Assembly (NCBI GenBank): GCA_012985245.1
Contig: JABELA010000052.1
Coordinates: 1 to 38,596 of the forward strand
Direction of reading: 5' to 3'
Length of the DNA stretch: 38,596 nucleotides
Source of the DNA: Corallococcus exiguus
Lineage (GTDB): Bacteria; Myxococcota; Myxococcia; Myxococcales; Myxococcaceae
Part shown: positions 19,092 through 35,879 of the stretch, one piece after another
Position numbering within the stretch: position 1 is the first letter of the stretch
How the letters are laid out: each line of letters opens with the position of its first letter
The notes under the pieces: model-generated
The model's database searches: none
What the model saw: the letters and a program-made list of their open reading frames with translations, nothing else
Told to the model about the DNA's origin: nothing
Program-made: the position numbers and the translations under genes

Positions 19092-22000
19092 CTACCGGCG
19101 CGCCTTGCGAGCCGGCTTGCCCCGAGTGGTCTTCTTCGCCGCGGCCTTCTTCGCGGCGGTCTTCTTCCCCGCCGCCTTCTTCGCCGAAGCCTTCTTCGCA
19201 GGAGCCTTCTTCACCGCCGCCTTCTTCGCGGCCGTCTTCTTGCCCGCTGCCTTCTTCGCGGAAGCCTTCTTCGCAGGGGCCTTCTTCGCGGCGGACTTCT
19301 TGCTCGCCGCCTTCTTCGCGGAGGCCTTCTTCACCGCCGCCTTCTTCGCGGAGGCCTTCTTCGCAGGGGCCTTCTTCACCGCCGCCTTCTTCGCGGAGGC
19401 CTTCTTCGTCGGAGCCTTCTTCACCGGCTTCGCCGAGCCCTCCGGCGCCTCGCGGGCGTCGCCGCCCTCCTTGGCCCGGTCGAACTCGCGCATCGCGTCG
19501 TCCACGAGGCCCATGCTCATGTACGCGACGCCCAGGTCGTGGTGGTCCGCCGGGGACAGTCCTTCCTTGGTGCCCTCGCGCAGCTTGTTGAGGGCCTCCT
19601 CCACCATCGGATCCGCGGCCTGGGGCGCCTGCGAAGCCTCTTCGGCTTCAATCTCGCCCTTCAGCTCCTGGCCCAGGTTCACCGCTTCGTCCTTCGGTGC
19701 CTGCGGCTCGGTGGCCACCTTCACCTGGGCGCTCTCAGGCGCGAGGGACTCGGACGCTTCAGGGGCTTCGGACTCGGTGCTGCCCGGCAACGGCGACGGC
19801 GTCTCGGACATGGGGGGCTCCGGGGCGATGCGCTGGAAGTGATCCTGCAGCTTGACCGTGCGCTCCTGGAGCTCCGCCACCCGGGCCTTGTCCTTCTCCA
19901 CCACGTCCGGCGGAGCACGGGCCACGAAGTTCGGGTTGTCCAGCTTGCGCTGCAAACCGGTGAGTTCCTGCTCGGAGCGGACGATCTCCTTCTTCAGGCG
20001 CTCGCGCTCCGCGTCCAGGTCCACCAGGCCCGCCAGGGGCACGTAGATTTCCAGGTTGCCGCTCACGAACGCCGCCGCCTGCGGAGGCTTGGCGCCCGGG
20101 GGGCCCACCACCACCTCGGACAGGCCCGCGAGCGGCATCAGGTACGCGCGCCAACGCTCCAACAGCTCGCGCGTCGTCGCGTCCGGGCTCTGCACCACCG
20201 CCTTCACCTTGGCGGACGGCGGCAGGTTGCTCTCGCCGCGCAGCGTGCGCAGGCCCTCGATGGCCGCGATGACCGGCGCCATCTCGCCTTCCGCGGCCGC
20301 GTCCACCCACGCCGTCTCCGGCGCCGGGTAGGCCGCGATGCAGATGCTCTCCGTGGGCCGGGACATCGGCAACTTCTGCCAGATCTCCTCGGTGATGAAC
20401 GGCATGAACGGGTGCATCAGCCGCAGGATGCGGTCCAGGCACGTCACCAGCACCGCGCGCGTGGTGTCCTTGGCCTCCGCGTCGTCGCCGTACAACGAGC
20501 CCTTCGCCAGCTCGATGTACCAATCGCAGAACTCCGCCCACAGGAACTGGTACAGCGTGGACGCGGCCTCCGCGAAGCCGAACGCCTCCAGCGACGCGCG
20601 CGTCTCCTCGGTGGCCTTCTGCAGGCGGGAGAGGATCCACCGGTCCGCCAGCGTCAGCTTGCGGCCCTCCAGCGGCGTCTTGTCCAGGCTGAAGTCGCCC
20701 ATGTTCATCAGGGCGAAGCGGCTGGCGTTCCACAGCTTGTTGCAGAACGCCTTGTAGCCACCCAGGCGGTCCATCGACAGCTTGATGTCACGGCCCTGCT
20801 GCGTGAGCGACGCCAACGTGAAGCGCAGCGCGTCCGCGCCGTGCGCGGGCATGCCCTGCGGGAAGCGGTTGCGCAAGGACGGCTGCAGCGACTCCGCCTT
20901 CGCGCCGAGGATGACGTCCAGGGGATCGATGACGTTCCCCTTCGTCTTGGACATCTTCTCGCCCTTCTCGTCGCGCACCATCGCGTGCAGGTACACGGTG
21001 CGGAAGGGCACGTCGTTCATGAAGTGCAGGCCCATCATCATCATCCGGGCGACCCAGAAGAAGATGATGTCGTGGCCCGTCTCCATCACGGACGTCGGGT
21101 AGAAGGTCTGGAGATCCGCCGTCTGCTTCGGCCAGCCCAGCGTGGAGAACGGCCACAGCGCGGACGAGAACCAGGTGTCCAGCACGTCCGGATCCTGCGT
21201 CAGCTCCTTGCCGCCGCACTTCGGGCAGGACTCCGGCGCCGTGCGCGACACGATGACGTCCGCCGTGTCCTTCGAGCGCTCTTCCGCCGGGGTGCACGCC
21301 GCGCAGTACCACGCCGGAATCTGGTGGCCCCACCACAGCTGGCGGCTCACGCACCAGTCGTGGATGTTGTTCATCCAGTGGAAGTACGTGTTCGTCCACG
21401 ACTCGGGGACGAACTTGGTGCGGCCCTCCTCCACGGCCTGGATGGCCGGCTTCGCCAGGGGTTCGATCTTGATGAACCACTGCGGCGACAGGCGCGGCTC
21501 CACCACCGTGGTGCAGCGCTGGCAGGTGCCCACGTTCAGCTTGTGCGGCTCCTCCTTCTCCAGCAGGCCCAGCTCCGTCAGGTCCGCCAGCACCTGCGTG
21601 CGCGCCTCCCGGCTCTCCAGGCCCGCGTACTTGCCGGTGTCCTTCGTCATCCGCGCCGCTTCGTCCAGGATGGACAGCATCGGCAGCTTGTGGCGCAGGC
21701 CCGTCTGGTAGTCGTTGAAGTCGTGCGCGGGCGTGACCTTCACCACGCCGGTGCCGAACTCCATGTTCACCAGCTCGCCGTCCGCGATGACCGGAATCTC
21801 ACGGTCGGTGAGCGGCAGCGCCACGCTCTTGCCGATGAGGTCCTGGTAGCGCGGATCCTCCGGGTGCACGGCGACGGCCGTGTCGCCCAGCAGCGTCTCC
21901 GGGCGCGTCGTGGCCACGGTGAGGAAGCGCTCCGTGCCCTTCACCGGGTAGCGGATGTGCCAGAGCGAGCCGTTCTTCTCCTCGTGCTCCACTTCCAGGT

Positions 22001-22571
22001 CGGAGAGGGCCGTGCGGCAGGACGGGCACCAGTTGATCAGCTTCTGGGCCCGGTACATCAGGCCCTCTTCGTACAGCCGGACGAACACCTCGCGCACCGC
22101 GGCCGAGGACTGCTCGTCCATGGTGAAGCGCTCGCGGCTCCAGTCCAGGGACGCGCCCAGGTAGCGGTGCTGCTCACCGATGCGCGCGCCGAACTTGCCC
22201 TTCCACGTCCAGACGCGCTCGAGGAACGCCTCGCGGCCCAGGTCGTGGCGGCTCTTGCCCTCCGTCTTCTTGAGCTCCTTCTCCACCACCATCTGCGTGG
22301 CGATGCCCGCGTGGTCCGTGCCCGGCAGCCAGAGCGCGTTGAAGCCGCTCATCCGCTTCCAGCGCGTGAGGATGTCCTGGATGGTCGCGGTGAGCGCGTG
22401 GCCGATGTGCAGGCTGCCCGTCACGTTGGGCGGCGGCAGCACGATGCTGAACGGCGGCTTGGAGGAAGGGGCTTCGGCGCGGAAGTAGTCGCGCTCCAGC
22501 CAGTGGTTGTACCACCGCGCCTCCACTTCGGAGGGCTCGTAGGCCTTGGACAGTTCAGTCGTGTCAGTCAT
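19092..22571 (-). CDS. valS: Valyl-tRNA synthetase with C-terminal Lys/Ala-rich histone-H1-like extension
   Basis: Class I HIGH ([14 protein letters not shown]) and KMSKS (KMSKTKGN) motifs. CP1 editing and anticodon-binding regions are present, followed by a C-terminal coiled coil. An additional ~250 aa follows: an acidic segment, a TPR-like helix pair, and roughly 25 AKKA/KKAA repeats. Confidence 0.92.
19095..19440. repeat. Tandem 12/24-nt repeats (gccttcttcgcg-type) encoding the KKA tail of ValRS
   Basis: Repeated gccgccttcttcgcggaggccttcttcgcaggggccttcttc units are visible in the DNA. Confidence 0.8.
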
Positions 22572-22624
22572 TGCAAGCGGCCGGCCCCCGACGGGGCCGG
22601 CGGGGAATCAGAGGGGACTGCGAA

Positions 22625-23887
22625 TCAATGCTGGGTCTCGCGGTCCTTGATGAGCCGCTCCAGCTCTTCCCGGATGATGGTCTCCGCCAGCTGCGGAACG
22701 ACCTCCCAGGCAATCTTCTCGATGACCTCGCGGGACGCCTTCGACAGCGCCTCGCGCAGCAGCGCCTCTCCGCCATCCGCGGCCGGACGGGCGCGCGAGG
22801 GAGGAGTCGCCGGCGAGGGGCCGCCGATGTCCAGGGAGATCTCCTCCGCGCCGCTGGGCTCGGGCAGCGAGTCCTCGATGCGGATGCTCTCCGTGCGGGC
22901 CTGCGCCGCGGGCGGGGCGGCCGGAGCGCCCAGCCCGAACGGATCCCGGGCACGGGCGGCCGGAGGCACCGCGGCGGGCGGGGGCGCGGACGGCAGCGGC
23001 GCGGCGCCCGGAGGACGCGGGAAGCCGCCCGGGATGTTCGGGGCGCCAGGGCCCGGAGGACGCGCGGCCATGCCCGGAGGCGGCGCACCCGGCGGACGCG
23101 CGCCCGGAGGCACGGCACCCGGAGGAGGACGCGCACCCGGCGGCATGGCGCCCGGAGGCGGCGCACCCGGAGGACGCGCGCCCATGCCCGGAGGCGGCGC
23201 ACCCGGCGGAGGACGTGCACCCGGCGGCATGGCGCCCGGAGGCGGCGCACCCGGAGGACGCGCGCCCGGAGGAACAGCGCCCGGCAGCGGACGCGCCGCA
23301 CCCGGAGGAGGAGGCACACCAGCGCCCGGAGGACGCGCGCCCGGAGGCACGGCACCCGGAGGAGGACGCGCACCCGGCGGCATGGCGCCCGGAGGCGGCG
23401 CACCCGCGGGACGCGCACCCGGCGGCACGGCGGCGGCGGGCGGCGGGCTGACCGGAGCGCTCGGGGCGGAGGTCTGGGGCAGAATGCGCGTCGCGGCGGA
23501 CGCGGGCATCGTGTTGGACTTCTGGCCCACCAGCGCCTTCACCTTGTCGAGGAGGATCTGGCTCTCGAAGGGCTTGGTGATGTGGTCATCCGCCCGGGCG
23601 GCCTTCGCGCGGTTCTCGTCGAACGCCTCGAAGGTGCCGGCGAGCAGCAGCACCGGGATGGCCTGCGTGGAGGGGTCGCCCTTGAGCGCCTCGCAGACCT
23701 CGTAGCCGCTCTTGCCCGGCATCATCACGTCGGCGAGCACCACGTCCGGACGCAGCTCGCGCGTGCGGGAGATGGCGTCCAGCCCGTTGTCCACCGCGGT
23801 CACCTGGAAGTCTTCCGTCGCGAAGATCATCCCGATCACCTTGCGGATGGTGAGCGAGTCGTCGGCGATCAGTAGATTCTTGGGCAT
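22625..23887 (-). CDS. romR: Response regulator with N-terminal receiver domain, long Pro/Ala/Gly-rich linker and conserved acidic C-terminal domain (RomR-like)
   Basis: Receiver domain: LLIADDSLTIRKVIGMIFATEDFQVTAVDNGLDAI...DVVLADVMMPGKSGYEVC...KPF, with Asp and Lys in the expected positions. The ~170-aa PPGARPPGAxPPG repeat linker and the Glu-rich C-terminal domain match the RomR architecture. The start was chosen at MPKNLLIADD; the ORF is open upstream to 23971. Confidence 0.7.
   Translation of the reverse strand: MPKNLLIADDSLTIRKVIGMIFATEDFQVTAVDNGLDAISRTRELRPDVVLADVMMPGKSGYEVCEALKGDPSTQAIPVLLLAGTFEAFDENRAKAARADDHITKPFESQILLDKVKALVGQKSNTMPASAATRILPQTSAPSAPVSPPPAAAVPPGARPAGAPPPGAMPPGARPPPGAVPPGARPPGAGVPPPPGAARPLPGAVPPGARPPGAPPPGAMPPGARPPPGAPPPGMGARPPGAPPPGAMPPGARPPPGAVPPGARPPGAPPPGMAARPPGPGAPNIPGGFPRPPGAAPLPSAPPPAAVPPAARARDPFGLGAPAAPPAAQARTESIRIEDSLPEPSGAEEISLDIGGPSPATPPSRARPAADGGEALLREALSKASREVIEKIAWEVVPQLAETIIREELERLIKDRETQH
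22950..23460. repeat. Degenerate tandem repeats (cccggaggacgcgcgcccggaggc...) encoding the Pro-rich linker
   Basis: A visible DNA periodicity of roughly 24–27 nt encoding PPGARPPGA units. Confidence 0.7.
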
Positions 23888-24004
23888 CGGCTCCGGCCTC
23901 GGGGGGCGCATACCCCCCTGAATTCGTTTGAGATTTCGGGCGAGCAAGCCTGCCTGCACGCCCTGTGTCAATCGGAGAAGCTTAGGATTCGCGCGTTGGG
24001 CCGA

Positions 24005-24817
24005 TCAAGAAAACATGCGCTGCAGGTCCAGTAACATCACCGGATCCGGCAGCCCCGGCGCCCGGAACGTTCCGGGAAGCTCGGCCGGCTTGAACTTCTG
24101 CAGCACACCCAGCACCCGGTTGGCCGCCAGCCCCACGTTCCGCCCCGCCATTTCCGTGAGGACGAACAACTCCTCCGCCTGGGCCGGCGCACCCAGCAGC
24201 GCTGGAATCGAACAGATGGGCCATAGCGCCTGCGCGTGGGGATAGACGCCCGCCACCGGCCCGCTCTGCACCGGGAGGACGCTGAACGCCTCGCCCCGGG
24301 GTACCACCTGGGAGACGCAACCCAGCGGGACGCCGAACAGCACCCCCTGGGACTCCAGCACCAGCGCCCGCTCAGGGGGCTCGTCCGCATAGTGCACGGG
24401 CCGGGGCTCTGGCGGGGTCGCCCGGGGGCCCGCCCGGTGCGGCAGCGCCTCCACGATGAGCTCCAGGTACAGCCGGTCCTTGTGCAGCACCGCGCCCCGG
24501 CTCAGCGGCGCCAGCGAGTCCGCCAGTCCCGGAGGCAGCAGGAAGAACGGATCCCTCGCGACGTCCGCGACCTCCACCACGGCGCGCACCCGCACCGCGA
24601 GCGTGGGGCTGACGTCCAGGACCACCACCATGCCCGGCACTTCCTCAGGCAGGCCGCCGAGCAACGCGGCGAGGTCCTTCACTTCCAGTACGCCGCGCAG
24701 ACTCGCGCCGCGAGCGCCCGGCATCGCGACCTCGATGACGGAGGTGGCCTCCACCGCGTAGCGCGTCTCTCCGGCCTCCACCAGCAGGCAGAGCCGCCGT
24801 CCGCTTTCAAAGGGCAC
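24005..24817 (-). CDS. Tandem CheW-like domain protein (chemosensory coupling protein)
   Basis: Two ~130-aa segments with the CheW-like pattern (RRLCLLVEAGETRYAVEATSVIEV...; ELFVLTEMAGRNVGLAANRVLGV...), including hydrophobic β-strand signatures. No kinase motifs. Confidence 0.6.
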   Translation of the reverse strand: MPFESGRRLCLLVEAGETRYAVEATSVIEVAMPGARGASLRGVLEVKDLAALLGGLPEEVPGMVVVLDVSPTLAVRVRAVVEVADVARDPFFLLPPGLADSLAPLSRGAVLHKDRLYLELIVEALPHRAGPRATPPEPRPVHYADEPPERALVLESQGVLFGVPLGCVSQVVPRGEAFSVLPVQSGPVAGVYPHAQALWPICSIPALLGAPAQAEELFVLTEMAGRNVGLAANRVLGVLQKFKPAELPGTFRAPGLPDPVMLLDLQRMFS

Positions 24818-24849
24818 GGCCCGGGACCCTAGCAGCCTTCCAGCGTTGG

Positions 24850-26259
24850 GTGCTAAGCCCTGAAACAGTCATGGCGCGACTGCTCCTCGTCGACGACGAA
24901 AAGATCGCCCGCAATCTCTACGGCGACTACCTCACGGCCGCGGGACACCTGGTCACGGCGGTGCCCACCGTGGCGGACGCGAAGGCCGCCCTCTCCGCGG
25001 CGCGGTTCGACGCGGTGGTGACGGACCTCATCCTCCCCGGCGGCGACGGCATGGAAGTGCTTCGCCACGTGCGCGAGCGCTACCCCGGCGTGGAGGTGCT
25101 GGTCATCACCGGCCTGGACAAGGTGGCCCCCGCGGTGCGCGCCATCAAGAGCGGCGCGGCGGAGTACCTGGTCAAGCCCGTGGCGCCGGAGGCCCTGGAA
25201 CACGCGCTGCGCCGCGCGCTCACCACGCGCGACCTGATGCGTGAGAACGCGTCCCTGCGCCAGCACGTCGCGCTGCTGGAGGCGGGCCAGCGCATCGCCA
25301 CCACGCTCGACCGCGAGCGGCTGTCCACGGCCGCGTCGGACGCGCTGGAGTCCATGGCCAACGCCTCCGCGGTGATGCTCCTGGAGCGGGACCCCGGCGG
25401 CACGGGCTTCCGCTCGCACGGCATGCGCGGGCTGCCGGTGGACCTGCACGAGGCGCTCGTCCCGCTGCTCATCGAGCGGCTTTCGGGCACGCGCACGCAG
25501 GTGGAGCTCGACGGACTTCAAGTTCCCTGGCCGCGCACCCTCTCCTTCCCCGCCGTGGACGGCGAGTTGGTGCTGGGCCACGCGGTGCTCTTCCACGACA
25601 ACGCGCCCGCGGAGCACCACGCGGAGACCGTGGGCTTCCTCGTGCGCAACTGGGCGCTGGCCCTGCGCAACCTGGGCCGCTTCGCCGCCGTGGAGGACCT
25701 GGCCTACGTCGATGATCTCACCCGCCTGTTCAACACGCGCTACCTGCACCTGGTGCTGGACCGCGAGGTGAACGAGGCCCTCCAGACGGAGCGCCCCTTC
25801 TCCCTGCTGTTCCTGGACCTGGACCGCTTCAAGGCCATCAACGACACGCACGGGCACCTGGTGGGCTCGCGGGTGCTGGTGGAGGCCGCGCGCGTGCTCA
25901 AGGGCTGCGTGCGCGACCCGGACGTGGTGGCGCGCTTCGGCGGCGACGAGTACGTGGTGCTCCTGCGCGGCACGGACTCCGGCGGGGCCCTCAAGGTCGC
26001 CGAGCGCATCCGCCGCACCATGGAGACCCATCAGTTCCTGGGCCGCGAGGGGCTGGCGCTCAAGCTCACCACCTGCATCGGCGTGGCCAGCTTCCCGGAG
26101 CATGCCCAGGACAAGGACCACCTGCTGGACCTGTCCGACCGGGCCATGTACCGGGGCAAGCGCGGCACCCGGAACGTCGTCTACATGGCGGCGCAGGACC
26201 TGGAAGCCACCCCGGCCGAGCGCCGTCAGAATCCCCCGCCCCCGCAGGGCCAGGGCTGA
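24850..26259 (+). CDS. Response-regulator diguanylate cyclase (REC–GAF-like–GGDEF)
   Basis: REC domain: LLLVDDE...VVTDLILPGGDGMEVL...VITG...KP. C-terminal GGDEF domain with an RxxD-like I-site and the GGDEY variant (VARFGGDEYVVLL); the DLDRFKAINDTHGH segment is typical of GGDEF. Confidence 0.85.
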   Translation: MLSPETVMARLLLVDDEKIARNLYGDYLTAAGHLVTAVPTVADAKAALSAARFDAVVTDLILPGGDGMEVLRHVRERYPGVEVLVITGLDKVAPAVRAIKSGAAEYLVKPVAPEALEHALRRALTTRDLMRENASLRQHVALLEAGQRIATTLDRERLSTAASDALESMANASAVMLLERDPGGTGFRSHGMRGLPVDLHEALVPLLIERLSGTRTQVELDGLQVPWPRTLSFPAVDGELVLGHAVLFHDNAPAEHHAETVGFLVRNWALALRNLGRFAAVEDLAYVDDLTRLFNTRYLHLVLDREVNEALQTERPFSLLFLDLDRFKAINDTHGHLVGSRVLVEAARVLKGCVRDPDVVARFGGDEYVVLLRGTDSGGALKVAERIRRTMETHQFLGREGLALKLTTCIGVASFPEHAQDKDHLLDLSDRAMYRGKRGTRNVVYMAAQDLEATPAERRQNPPPPQGQG

Positions 26260-35690: not shown

Positions 35691-35790
35691 GCGGTAGGGC
35701 CTCCGGACCTGGTGGCCGGCCCGGTCTTCAAAACCGGTGAGGGGCTGCGAGAGCAGTCCCTGGCGAGTTCGATTCCCGTGCCCTACCGCC
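35691..35790 (+). tRNA. selC: tRNA-Sec (selC-like, anticodon UCA) with long variable arm
   Basis: Acceptor arms gcggtaggg / ccctaccgc. Anticodon stem-loop ccggt-cTTCAaaa-ccgg closely matches E. coli selC GGACTTCAAATCC. Long extra arm ggggctgc-gaga-gcagtccc (E. coli: GGGGCCGC-CA-GCGGTCCC). T-loop gagTTCGATTccc. Total length ~100 nt. Exact ends are ±3 nt. Confidence 0.7.
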
Positions 35791-35879
35791 ATGTTTTCCT
35801 TGGGGTTTTCTGACGCGGCCCTGATCGGGTTGCGAGGCGCCCTGCCCTCCCTTACCTCTCGTACCCAAGTTCTACCCAA

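Follow-up and report, generated by a model that had tools for sequence, protein, structure and literature searches.

Why should a complete bacterial valyl-tRNA synthetase (ValRS) end in a long lysine-rich tail, and what might that tail do? The question is raised by valS of Corallococcus exiguus. The window that we analyzed is an entire C. exiguus contig (38,596 bp, 69% GC), in which valS is one unbroken open reading frame (ORF) on the minus strand at 19092..22571, with its stop codon at 19092-19094. The 1159-amino-acid (aa) product is identical to NCBI NNC03360.1, also from C. exiguus. An initial annotation of the window had proposed that the enzyme is fused, without an intervening stop codon, to an acidic spacer, a tetratricopeptide repeat (TPR)-like motif and a histone-H1-like lysine array. 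We found that the extension is an inherited three-part accessory, consisting of an acidic linker, a four-helix module and a polycationic tail, on a complete ValRS. The proposed fusion was borne out: there is a single 1159-aa ORF, its GC content at third codon positions (GC3) stays high, and the same arrangement recurs in over 100 independent Myxococcota sequences.

A three-part extension on a complete enzyme

The C. exiguus protein has the full set of ValRS features: class Ia catalytic signatures, editing and anticodon-binding domains, and a coiled-coil arm. The canonical body, comprising the catalytic, editing and anticodon-binding domains (residues 1-850; 20022..22571, minus strand), was delimited with Pfam, sequence motifs and an alignment to the Thermus thermophilus ValRS 1GAX. 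Pfam placed tRNA-synt_1 at residues 20-599, Anticodon_1 at 643-792 and Val_tRNA-synt_C at 851-915, the last match spanning profile positions 1-65 of 66. The HIGH signature was located at residue 55, KMSK at 539 and the editing motif TTRPET at 221. The C-terminal coiled-coil tRNA-binding arm, with which a bacterial ValRS usually ends, occupies residues 851-915 (19827..20021, minus strand), as judged from Val_tRNA-synt_C and an AlphaFold2 (AF2) model. The T. thermophilus enzyme (862 aa) aligned over residues 6-913 (E = 1.9e-239). Because the arm ends at residue 915 and this alignment ends at 913, residues 916-1159 are extra. The extension is thus 244 aa long, close to the ~250 aa beyond the coiled coil that had been estimated initially. 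GC3 across the extension was 0.86-1.0, compared to 0.97 in the enzyme core, indicating that the minus-strand frame of valS is the coding frame through the extension.

The protein passed the NCBIfam model for a long-form valine--tRNA ligase (NF011492/PRK14900; 1817.1 bits, equivalog cutoff 1783), with query residues 1-1103 aligned to model positions 3-1020 of 1044. This Myxococcota-type long ValRS is the family to which the C. exiguus enzyme belongs. Beyond the coiled-coil arm, the model covers the linker, the module and the first part of the basic tail; it names the protein and gives no function for the extension.

We modeled residues 846-1159 with AF2, using a 20-sequence alignment. The arm (residues 852-915) was predicted to be a helical hairpin with a predicted local distance difference test score (pLDDT) of 91-95. 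The linker (residues 916-965; pLDDT 42-57) and the lysine tail (residues 1036-1159; pLDDT 43-54) had no secondary structure in the model. Between them, residues 966-1035 (pLDDT 58-76) formed four helices, at 966-980, 988-1002, 1007-1019 and 1022-1035. A search with residues 916-1159 found no sequence match to any PDB structure.

The linker, residues 916-962 (19686..19826, minus strand), is rich in Pro, Glu, Ser and Ala and, from its charge and the AF2 model, is predicted to be disordered. The net charge of residues 916-1005 is -14, in keeping with the acidic spacer described at the outset. In an alignment of homologues the linker was variable and acidic, with a junction consensus of RIAPExx-M and a short conserved A-x-V-K-(V/I)-A-P. 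In C. exiguus this conserved motif is AQVKVA at residues 948-953 (19713-19730), and V950 is nearly invariant.

The module that follows, ~73 residues long (963-1035; 19467..19685, minus strand), was defined from the homologue alignment and the AF2 helices. It is near-invariant across Myxococcota ValRS and opens with vDLgxELkxeL. A single TPR-like helix pair, identified by AF2 and profile search, closes it (residues 1007-1035; 19467-19553, minus strand). The TPR-like motif noted initially (residues 1012-1030) thus reflects a genuine, single TPR-like unit, which accounts for no more than the last half of the module. The single-sequence match to Pfam TPR_2 was weak (14.1 bits against a threshold of 27; E = 0.053). 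When a profile of the module family was compared to the PDB, it matched MamA (E = 1.9e-7) and consensus TPR proteins (up to E = 1e-4), and the last two helices reached a pLDDT of ~90 when modeled alone. A Foldseek search with the module returned TPR folds only, including FimV TPR3, none of them significant, and identified no specific partner family. In a TPR tandem array at least three repeats form a ligand-binding superhelix; the ValRS module has one pair, preceded by two non-TPR helices.

A short hinge (residues 1036-1049; 19425..19466, minus strand) joins the module to the polycationic tail (residues 1050-1159; 19095..19424, minus strand), which was delimited from its sequence, Tandem Repeats Finder (TRF) and AF2. 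The tail consists of 20 xKKxx pentapeptides plus two degenerate R/K units, RGKPA and RKARR, rather than the ~25 repeats first counted. Residues 1041-1159 contain 43 K and 42 A in 119 residues (36% Lys) and have a charge of +45. The DNA repeats had been called perfect. TRF found 19.7 copies of a 15-bp unit at 19131-19426 with 75% matches, and no exact repeat is longer than 41 nt. In a six-frame scan of the contig the valS tail was the sole K-rich stretch. Terminator-like matches within the array were on the antisense strand and were set aside as by-products of the repeat, and an Rfam scan of 17500-24900 found no RNA families. Across homologues the basic stretch ranged from ~60 to 250 aa, variable in sequence and constant in its K/A/P composition; tails of 130-400 aa likewise kept charge and composition while sequence and length varied.

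The four-helix module also occurs outside ValRS. The NCBIfam SgmX model (NF052243) gave a local match to its positions 813-925 (E = 7e-9); the score of the whole protein, 31-35 bits, is well below the cutoff of 1800, and ValRS is thus not itself an SgmX. An exhaustive search of 1.84 billion representative sequences with the module profile recovered ValRS fragments and large all-TPR proteins, and the latter aligned over the entire profile (P0230 at 915-999, P0249 at 721-805, P0265 at 696-780, and others). SgmX was the best NCBIfam family for these proteins, below cutoff, and the module maps to the equivalent positions of SgmX. Comparison of the ValRS module with the SgmX-like modules by hhalign gave a probability of 99.5% (E = 4e-23, 75 columns), a figure that is confirmatory rather than independent, since the SgmX-like alignment was built from matches to the ValRS-module profile.

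SgmX, a type IV pilus activator of Myxococcus xanthus, has 14 TPRs arranged in pilus-activating, FrzS-binding and MglA-binding domains (PMC9811614), and truncation after G802 removes TPR12-14, the MglA-GTP-binding domain (PMC7668184, PMC9811614). The profile matches make the ValRS module a homologue of the opening segment of TPR12-14, the MglA-GTP-binding domain, in SgmX-type proteins. Given the match at 813-925 and the loss of TPR12-14 after G802, it corresponds to the lead-in and first TPR of that domain. The two share ~75 residues in which (F/V)DLxxELxxEL is followed by an acidic loop, a helix and HYdLGVAYxEMGLxDDAIxEF; the helix that reads F-EFKkGV in SgmX-type proteins reads L-KLREGT in C. 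exiguus ValRS, and the closing stretch of the large all-TPR proteins reads HYnLGvAYkEMGLlDDAIeEF. In SgmX-type proteins, which are all-TPR, two further TPRs follow, whereas in ValRS the lone TPR is followed by the lysine tail. Metagenomic loci L052-L071 encode a compact all-TPR family (ORFs of ~595-618 aa) with an SgmX-like module near the C-terminus; this family is distinct from the 900-1100-aa SgmX-like proteins.

Fused, split and lost forms of the tail

We assembled homologues by a full-length search and the exhaustive profile search. A continuous fused ORF was present in the 33 sequences of the 90% cluster that contains the C. exiguus protein, which come from independent Corallococcus assemblies including complete genomes, and in ~90 further Myxococcota ValRS. 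The fused homologues recovered by the full-length search included those of Corallococcus, Myxococcus, Pyxidicoccus, Hyalangium, Stigmatella and Aggregicoccus, together with many metagenome-assembled genomes. A comparison of valS lengths, which had been suggested as a check, gave 1040-1330 aa for the ~90 Myxococcota ValRS with a like layout. All 24 metagenomic loci with a complete upstream region were fused. Word-indexed searches were less informative: queries with the linker plus module or with P0168, a separate tail protein described below, had 5-7 matches among those listed, the P0168 search being swamped by lysine-rich words. A contig scan with the C-terminal 402 aa was dominated by the AKKAPAKK pattern, and two unrelated proteobacterial ValRS were among the matches listed.

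The expectation that the repeat number varies among strains was confirmed. Members of the Corallococcus cluster are 1150, 1152, 1154, 1159, 1164 or 1165 aa long. They differ mainly by 5-aa insertions or deletions (indels) within the lysine array, every indel being in frame, and such indels distinguished even strains with no more than 2-4 differences in the first 900 residues. The length of the array thus drifts between strains by 15-bp slippage, in frame. Annotation calls for care here: the array varies, and in gene calls and assemblies a fused form can pass for a split one, or the reverse.

Four states were found among the relatives: fused with the module, fused without the module, split, and absent. 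The first is the state of C. exiguus and of the majority, and all named Myxococcaceae are fused. The second is found in an Archangium/Melittangium clade, in which a hyperacidic linker (up to 61 D/E) leads directly into a K tail. In the absent state, which several clades show, valS directly abuts nadC, the quinolinate phosphoribosyltransferase gene that lies downstream of it.

The split state takes three forms. At loci L004 and L005, valS encodes 918 aa ending in ...LSRI*, and a 136-aa in-frame ORF with its own GGAGG starts 12 nt on, followed by nadC. This ORF (GC3 0.85) begins MSERTPEE and includes ARRTARKAGRKARR; its product has 42 K/R and 6 D/E, the acidic block being almost gone. The arrangement was found on ~20 contigs (JGI, ENA), and the spacing in RI-*TGGT-MSE equals that of the fused junction. 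A second form, on the contig that carries P0098, has a 925-aa valS, then a gene for the 172-aa protein P0168 (module plus K tail), then nadC. In a third (L011), the stop codon of valS overlaps the start of the tail gene as ATGA (GGAGGCATGATG), the classic arrangement predicted to give translational coupling.

A single in-frame stop codon after ...RI can be all that separates a split form from a fused one. The initial annotation had held that a stop codon parting valS from a small histone-like gene would overturn the fusion. Such a case does exist in related lineages, but not in C. exiguus. Judged by this comparison, the tail is an autonomous, evolutionarily labile and dispensable unit. In a neighbor-joining tree of the enzyme core, tail-less and split lineages were nested within the fused ones, a pattern suggestive of repeated tail loss or fission. 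The series of fused, split, module-stripped and lost forms is a natural experiment on the function of the tail and on the need for the covalent link.

Several candidate forms were discarded. The 115-aa stand-alone tail P0295, from locus L012 (GCA_964268505.1, 6.1 Mb; L012 3400-6400), accompanies a valS broken over three frames and most likely arose from indel errors that imitate the genuine split state. P0159, a 477-aa metagenomic ORF starting MSEEHKPK in which module and K tail run into a frameshifted nadC, was treated as a chimeric or mis-assembled fusion and used solely as a sign of valS-tail-nadC adjacency. P0144 and P0145 are possible stand-alone tail genes; P0144 begins 40 nt from a contig end and is not decisive. 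As a separate observation, the 963-aa metagenomic ValRS P0092, which lies beside split and tail-less lineages in the tree, has a decayed module remnant (EQYELGVSYLGG) and a short end, and its tail looks as if it is in the process of loss.

The junction itself contains a signal that resembles a translation start. Within the ORF, GGAG (19818-19821), a 6-nt spacer and the ATG of Met921 (19809-19811) together occupy 19809..19821 on the minus strand, in the context GCC CCG GAG CCC CCC ATG. Met921 is located where relatives begin a separate tail gene. A Met was present at the junction in 49 of 74 tail-bearing homologues, compared to a Met frequency of only 1.1% in the following 60 linker residues. 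Among non-redundant fused metagenomic loci with a locatable junction, 14 of 17 had the Met, and GGAG was at exactly -10 in 13 of the 14. A short-linker clade is without the junction Met. The signal could be a fossil of a once-separate gene or an active internal start. We regard it as suggestive only, because high-GC bias favors the Pro codon CCG and because the sequences are related.

If the start were active, valS would contain a gene within a gene: the GGAG-N6-ATG at Met921 would drive synthesis of a free 239-aa protein in which the acidic linker and the SgmX-like module precede the H1-like tail. We consider this unlikely. Were it true, Myxococcaceae would make both ValRS with the tail and the free tail from one ORF, the latter with the nucleoid, RNA or the MglA/RomR polarity system encoded just upstream as its target in trans.

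Possible roles of the extension

We favor, with a probability of about 0.5, the reading that the extension is a cis-acting accessory appendage of ValRS that binds nucleic acids non-specifically, and that its TPR-like module most likely serves for protein docking or self-association. The lysine tail would be a non-specific binder of polyanions, nucleic acid being the likely target. As a tRNA- or RNA-binding appendage in cis, it would raise the local concentration of tRNA or hold the enzyme on RNA- or DNA-rich surfaces. By analogy, the enhanced tRNA capture or nucleoid tether suggested initially would be plausible. The acidic stretch would probably temper the basic tail, as in myxobacterial CarD, and catalysis by ValRS would be independent of the extension.

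The closest functional parallels are eukaryotic. The lysine-rich domains of yeast ValRS (residues 1-98), yeast GlnRS and mammalian LysRS are, like the C. exiguus tail, disordered Lys-rich extensions on a complete synthetase. Lysine-rich extensions of aminoacyl-tRNA synthetases bind RNA non-specifically, and the domain appended to yeast ValRS binds tRNA with a dissociation constant of about 2 μM and contributes to aminoacylation (PMC2992532). The yeast extension is on the equivalent enzyme. The eukaryotic domains are mostly N-terminal; the C. exiguus extension is bacterial and C-terminal and has no sequence homology to them. Also unlike them, its tail is a regular pentapeptide array that follows an acidic block and a TPR-like module, and it is a free-standing gene in relatives. 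To our knowledge, bacterial aminoacyl-tRNA synthetases are usually described without lysine-rich appended domains of the eukaryotic type. The extension would therefore be a eukaryote-style synthetase trait that spans a whole bacterial lineage, the myxobacteria, with a eukaryote-like lifestyle.

Bacterial H1-like proteins provide a second parallel. Chlamydial Hc2, the Burkholderia H1-like protein and the Anaeromyxobacter CarD domain have xKKxx/AKKA repeats, an extreme isoelectric point and predicted disorder in common with the tail, and CarD has an acidic segment ahead of its basic repeats, as does C. exiguus ValRS. The CarD tail, an acidic segment followed by basic repeats, binds DNA, and the H1-like version from Anaeromyxobacter is functionally interchangeable with it (PMC4374960, PMC2919716). 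The likeness is compositional, and these proteins are nucleoid proteins or transcription factors, whereas the C. exiguus tail sits on an aminoacyl-tRNA synthetase.

The tRNA-binding cofactors Arc1p and Trbp111 are folded OB-type domains, unlike the C. exiguus tail, which is predicted to be a disordered polycation. Like the split-gene relatives of the tail, they are separate polypeptides; acting in trans, they lend synthetases general tRNA affinity (background in PMC2992532). In cyanobacteria, ValRS carries an inserted CAAD membrane-anchor domain that affects the location of the enzyme (PMC4893482). This is likewise a lineage-specific non-catalytic domain on a bacterial ValRS, and it differs from the C. 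exiguus extension in sequence, position and chemistry, being an internal transmembrane insertion directed to thylakoids.

The histone-H1-like composition noticed initially is real and counts for the favored role of a cis-acting nucleic-acid-binding appendage, in that the tail resembles H1 and Hc2: Pfam HC2 (PF07382, gathering score 40) matched the whole protein with 41.5 bits and the tail with 45.8 bits, a low-complexity, composition-driven match. Several points weigh against that role. The NCBIfam models histone_lik_HC2 (NF038052; 29-33.5 bits, cutoff 135) and hist_H1_lk_Burk (NF038053; 44.7-49.8 bits, cutoff 80, E = 5e-13) were below cutoff. The H1/Hc2 matches are therefore compositional and fall short of the NCBIfam equivalog cutoffs. 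DNA, rRNA, polyphosphate and acidic lipids are equally conceivable ligands of a K/A-rich polycation. Nor is there an obvious deficit to make up for, since the canonical tRNA-binding arm is intact. Repeated loss of the tail, and its existence as a free protein that in one clade has no docking module, are explained no less well by a function apart from ValRS than by tRNA capture in cis. The tree, which is midpoint-rooted and unbootstrapped, does not settle the direction of change between fusion and fission. Finally, the sole mention of the M. xanthus gene in the literature searched is that it is similar to Val-tRNA synthetases (PMC2034494).

A second explanation, which we find doubtful and yet the strongest of the alternatives, is that the extension is an independent H1-like nucleoid or polyanion-binding protein, equipped with a TPR docking module and unrelated in function to aminoacylation. 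Its place in the valS-nadC operon would serve to co-express it with growth, it would have become fused through loss of a stop codon at a coupled junction, and the conserved internal GGAG-N6-ATG may still release the free 239-aa protein. Such an origin is consistent with the stand-alone tail genes at the corresponding valS-nadC locus of relatives, with the repeated loss of the tail while valS was kept, with the conservation of Met921 and of GGAG at -10 inside fused genes, and with the match of the acidic-plus-basic layout to the DNA-binding CarD tail; P0145 has also been cited as a stand-alone tail elsewhere, though its stand-alone status is only possible. It sits less easily with the dominance of the fused state among module-bearing metagenomic loci and named Myxococcaceae, or with the retention of the fusion over 61-99% core identity, which suggests that being covalently linked does at least no harm and is probably of use. 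The short-linker clade is still fused even without the junction Met, and a conserved Pro-Glu could in part account for the GGAG, CCG being the preferred Pro codon at high GC.

An improbable third explanation is that the acidic and basic blocks drive self-association, phase separation or association with polyphosphate granules. The di-block charge is kept even without the module, where the hyperacidic linker precedes the K tail, and both blocks are predicted to be disordered. The H1-like AlgP of Pseudomonas, which is reported to occur on polyphosphate granules, counts in the same direction. The reasoning is purely compositional, however, and the stand-alone 136-aa version is nearly devoid of the acidic block.

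Less probable still is a link to cell polarity, in which the SgmX-like module would bind MglA-GTP, FrzS, RomR or a relative. ValRS or its tail would then be placed at or away from the poles, or translation capacity would be coupled to RomR/MglA. The homology of the module to SgmX 813-925 and the binding of MglA-GTP by TPR12-14 (PMC7668184, PMC9811614) point in this direction, as does the conserved cheW-romR-valS order, in which valS follows romR (see below). Against it, only one of the three MglA-binding TPRs is present, and a single TPR is not a recognized binding unit. Neighborhood alone is weak evidence, and romR-valS synteny was rejected as a correlate of the module, since it is unchanged in tail-less, split and module-less lineages.

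That the fusion is an artefact of assembly or sequencing, a missed stop codon or frameshift in repetitive GC-rich DNA having joined two genes, is effectively refuted: genuine split versions do exist in other lineages and the error-ridden L012 assembly shows frameshifts that blur the picture, but the identical 1159-aa protein or a 5-aa variant was found in 33 cluster members and the fusion in ~90 other species-level sequences, the indels are multiples of 15 bp, GC3 stays in frame through the tail, and the curated NF011492 long-form model was passed.

No paper in the literature searched discusses the ValRS extension. The bare observation is not new, as the long ValRS form is already named in databases and HC2 appears in precomputed Pfam lists. 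As far as we could determine, what is new is the kinship with SgmX, the series of fused, split and lost forms, the junction signal and the strain polymorphism. The SgmX-type module, the adjacency to romR and the internal start-like signal provide three testable leads for myxobacterial cell biology.

Neighboring genes and other features of the contig

valS is part of a run of minus-strand genes in the order cheW-romR-valS-nadC, an order also found at L003, L004 and L006. The first gene of the run (24005..24817, minus strand) encodes a double-CheW-domain protein similar to MXAN4462, with two stretches matching Pfam CheW. The second (22625..23887, minus strand) is a romR orthologue located 53 nt upstream of valS; its 420-aa product, counted from Met29, has a receiver domain with D53, a middle region that is 34% proline and a Glu-rich C-terminus. 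In M. xanthus, romR (MXAN4461) lies between MXAN4460, encoding a Val-tRNA synthetase, and MXAN4462, encoding a protein with two CheW domains (PMC2034494). We identify the C. exiguus regulator as the RomR orthologue because its neighborhood equals this published locus. In relatives, a GGDEF response regulator precedes the CheW protein, the RomR-like regulator, valS and nadC.

nadC (18204..19082, minus strand; TIGR00078, 303 bits) begins 9 nt past valS, and its Shine-Dalgarno sequence, GGAGG, overlaps the valS stop codon (TAGGAGGCGGAAGTG). From the sequence, nadC is predicted to be translationally coupled to valS. The valS-nadC order is kept in relatives.

Two long ORFs on the plus strand, at 19105-19842 (245 aa) and 18285-23705 (1806 aa), were rejected as GC-rich shadow ORFs opposite valS and romR, because homologues and a consistent domain structure were found only for the minus-strand frame. 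Long antisense shadow ORFs of this kind in 69%-GC DNA could mislead gene callers. The ORF encoding RomR (22625-23971, minus strand) itself contains a near-regular Pro-rich repeat, PPGARPPGA / PPGAMPPGARPP, over ~190 aa; the repeat creates a spurious Gly-rich ORF on the opposite strand, and the array could vary in length.

Three genes downstream of valS, the contig encodes a 758-aa homologue of the eukaryotic major vault protein (15241-17517, minus strand), with matches to Pfam Vault, Vault_2, Vault_3, Vault_4 and MVP_shoulder and a long coiled-coil C-terminus. A putative lipoprotein (14139-15155, minus strand) has a tandem TDAGTTTDAGTTTDAGTETDAGTETDAGTPTDGG repeat after its signal/lipobox region. 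The sole tRNA gene on the contig encodes tRNA-Sec (anticodon TCA; 35693-35791, plus strand).

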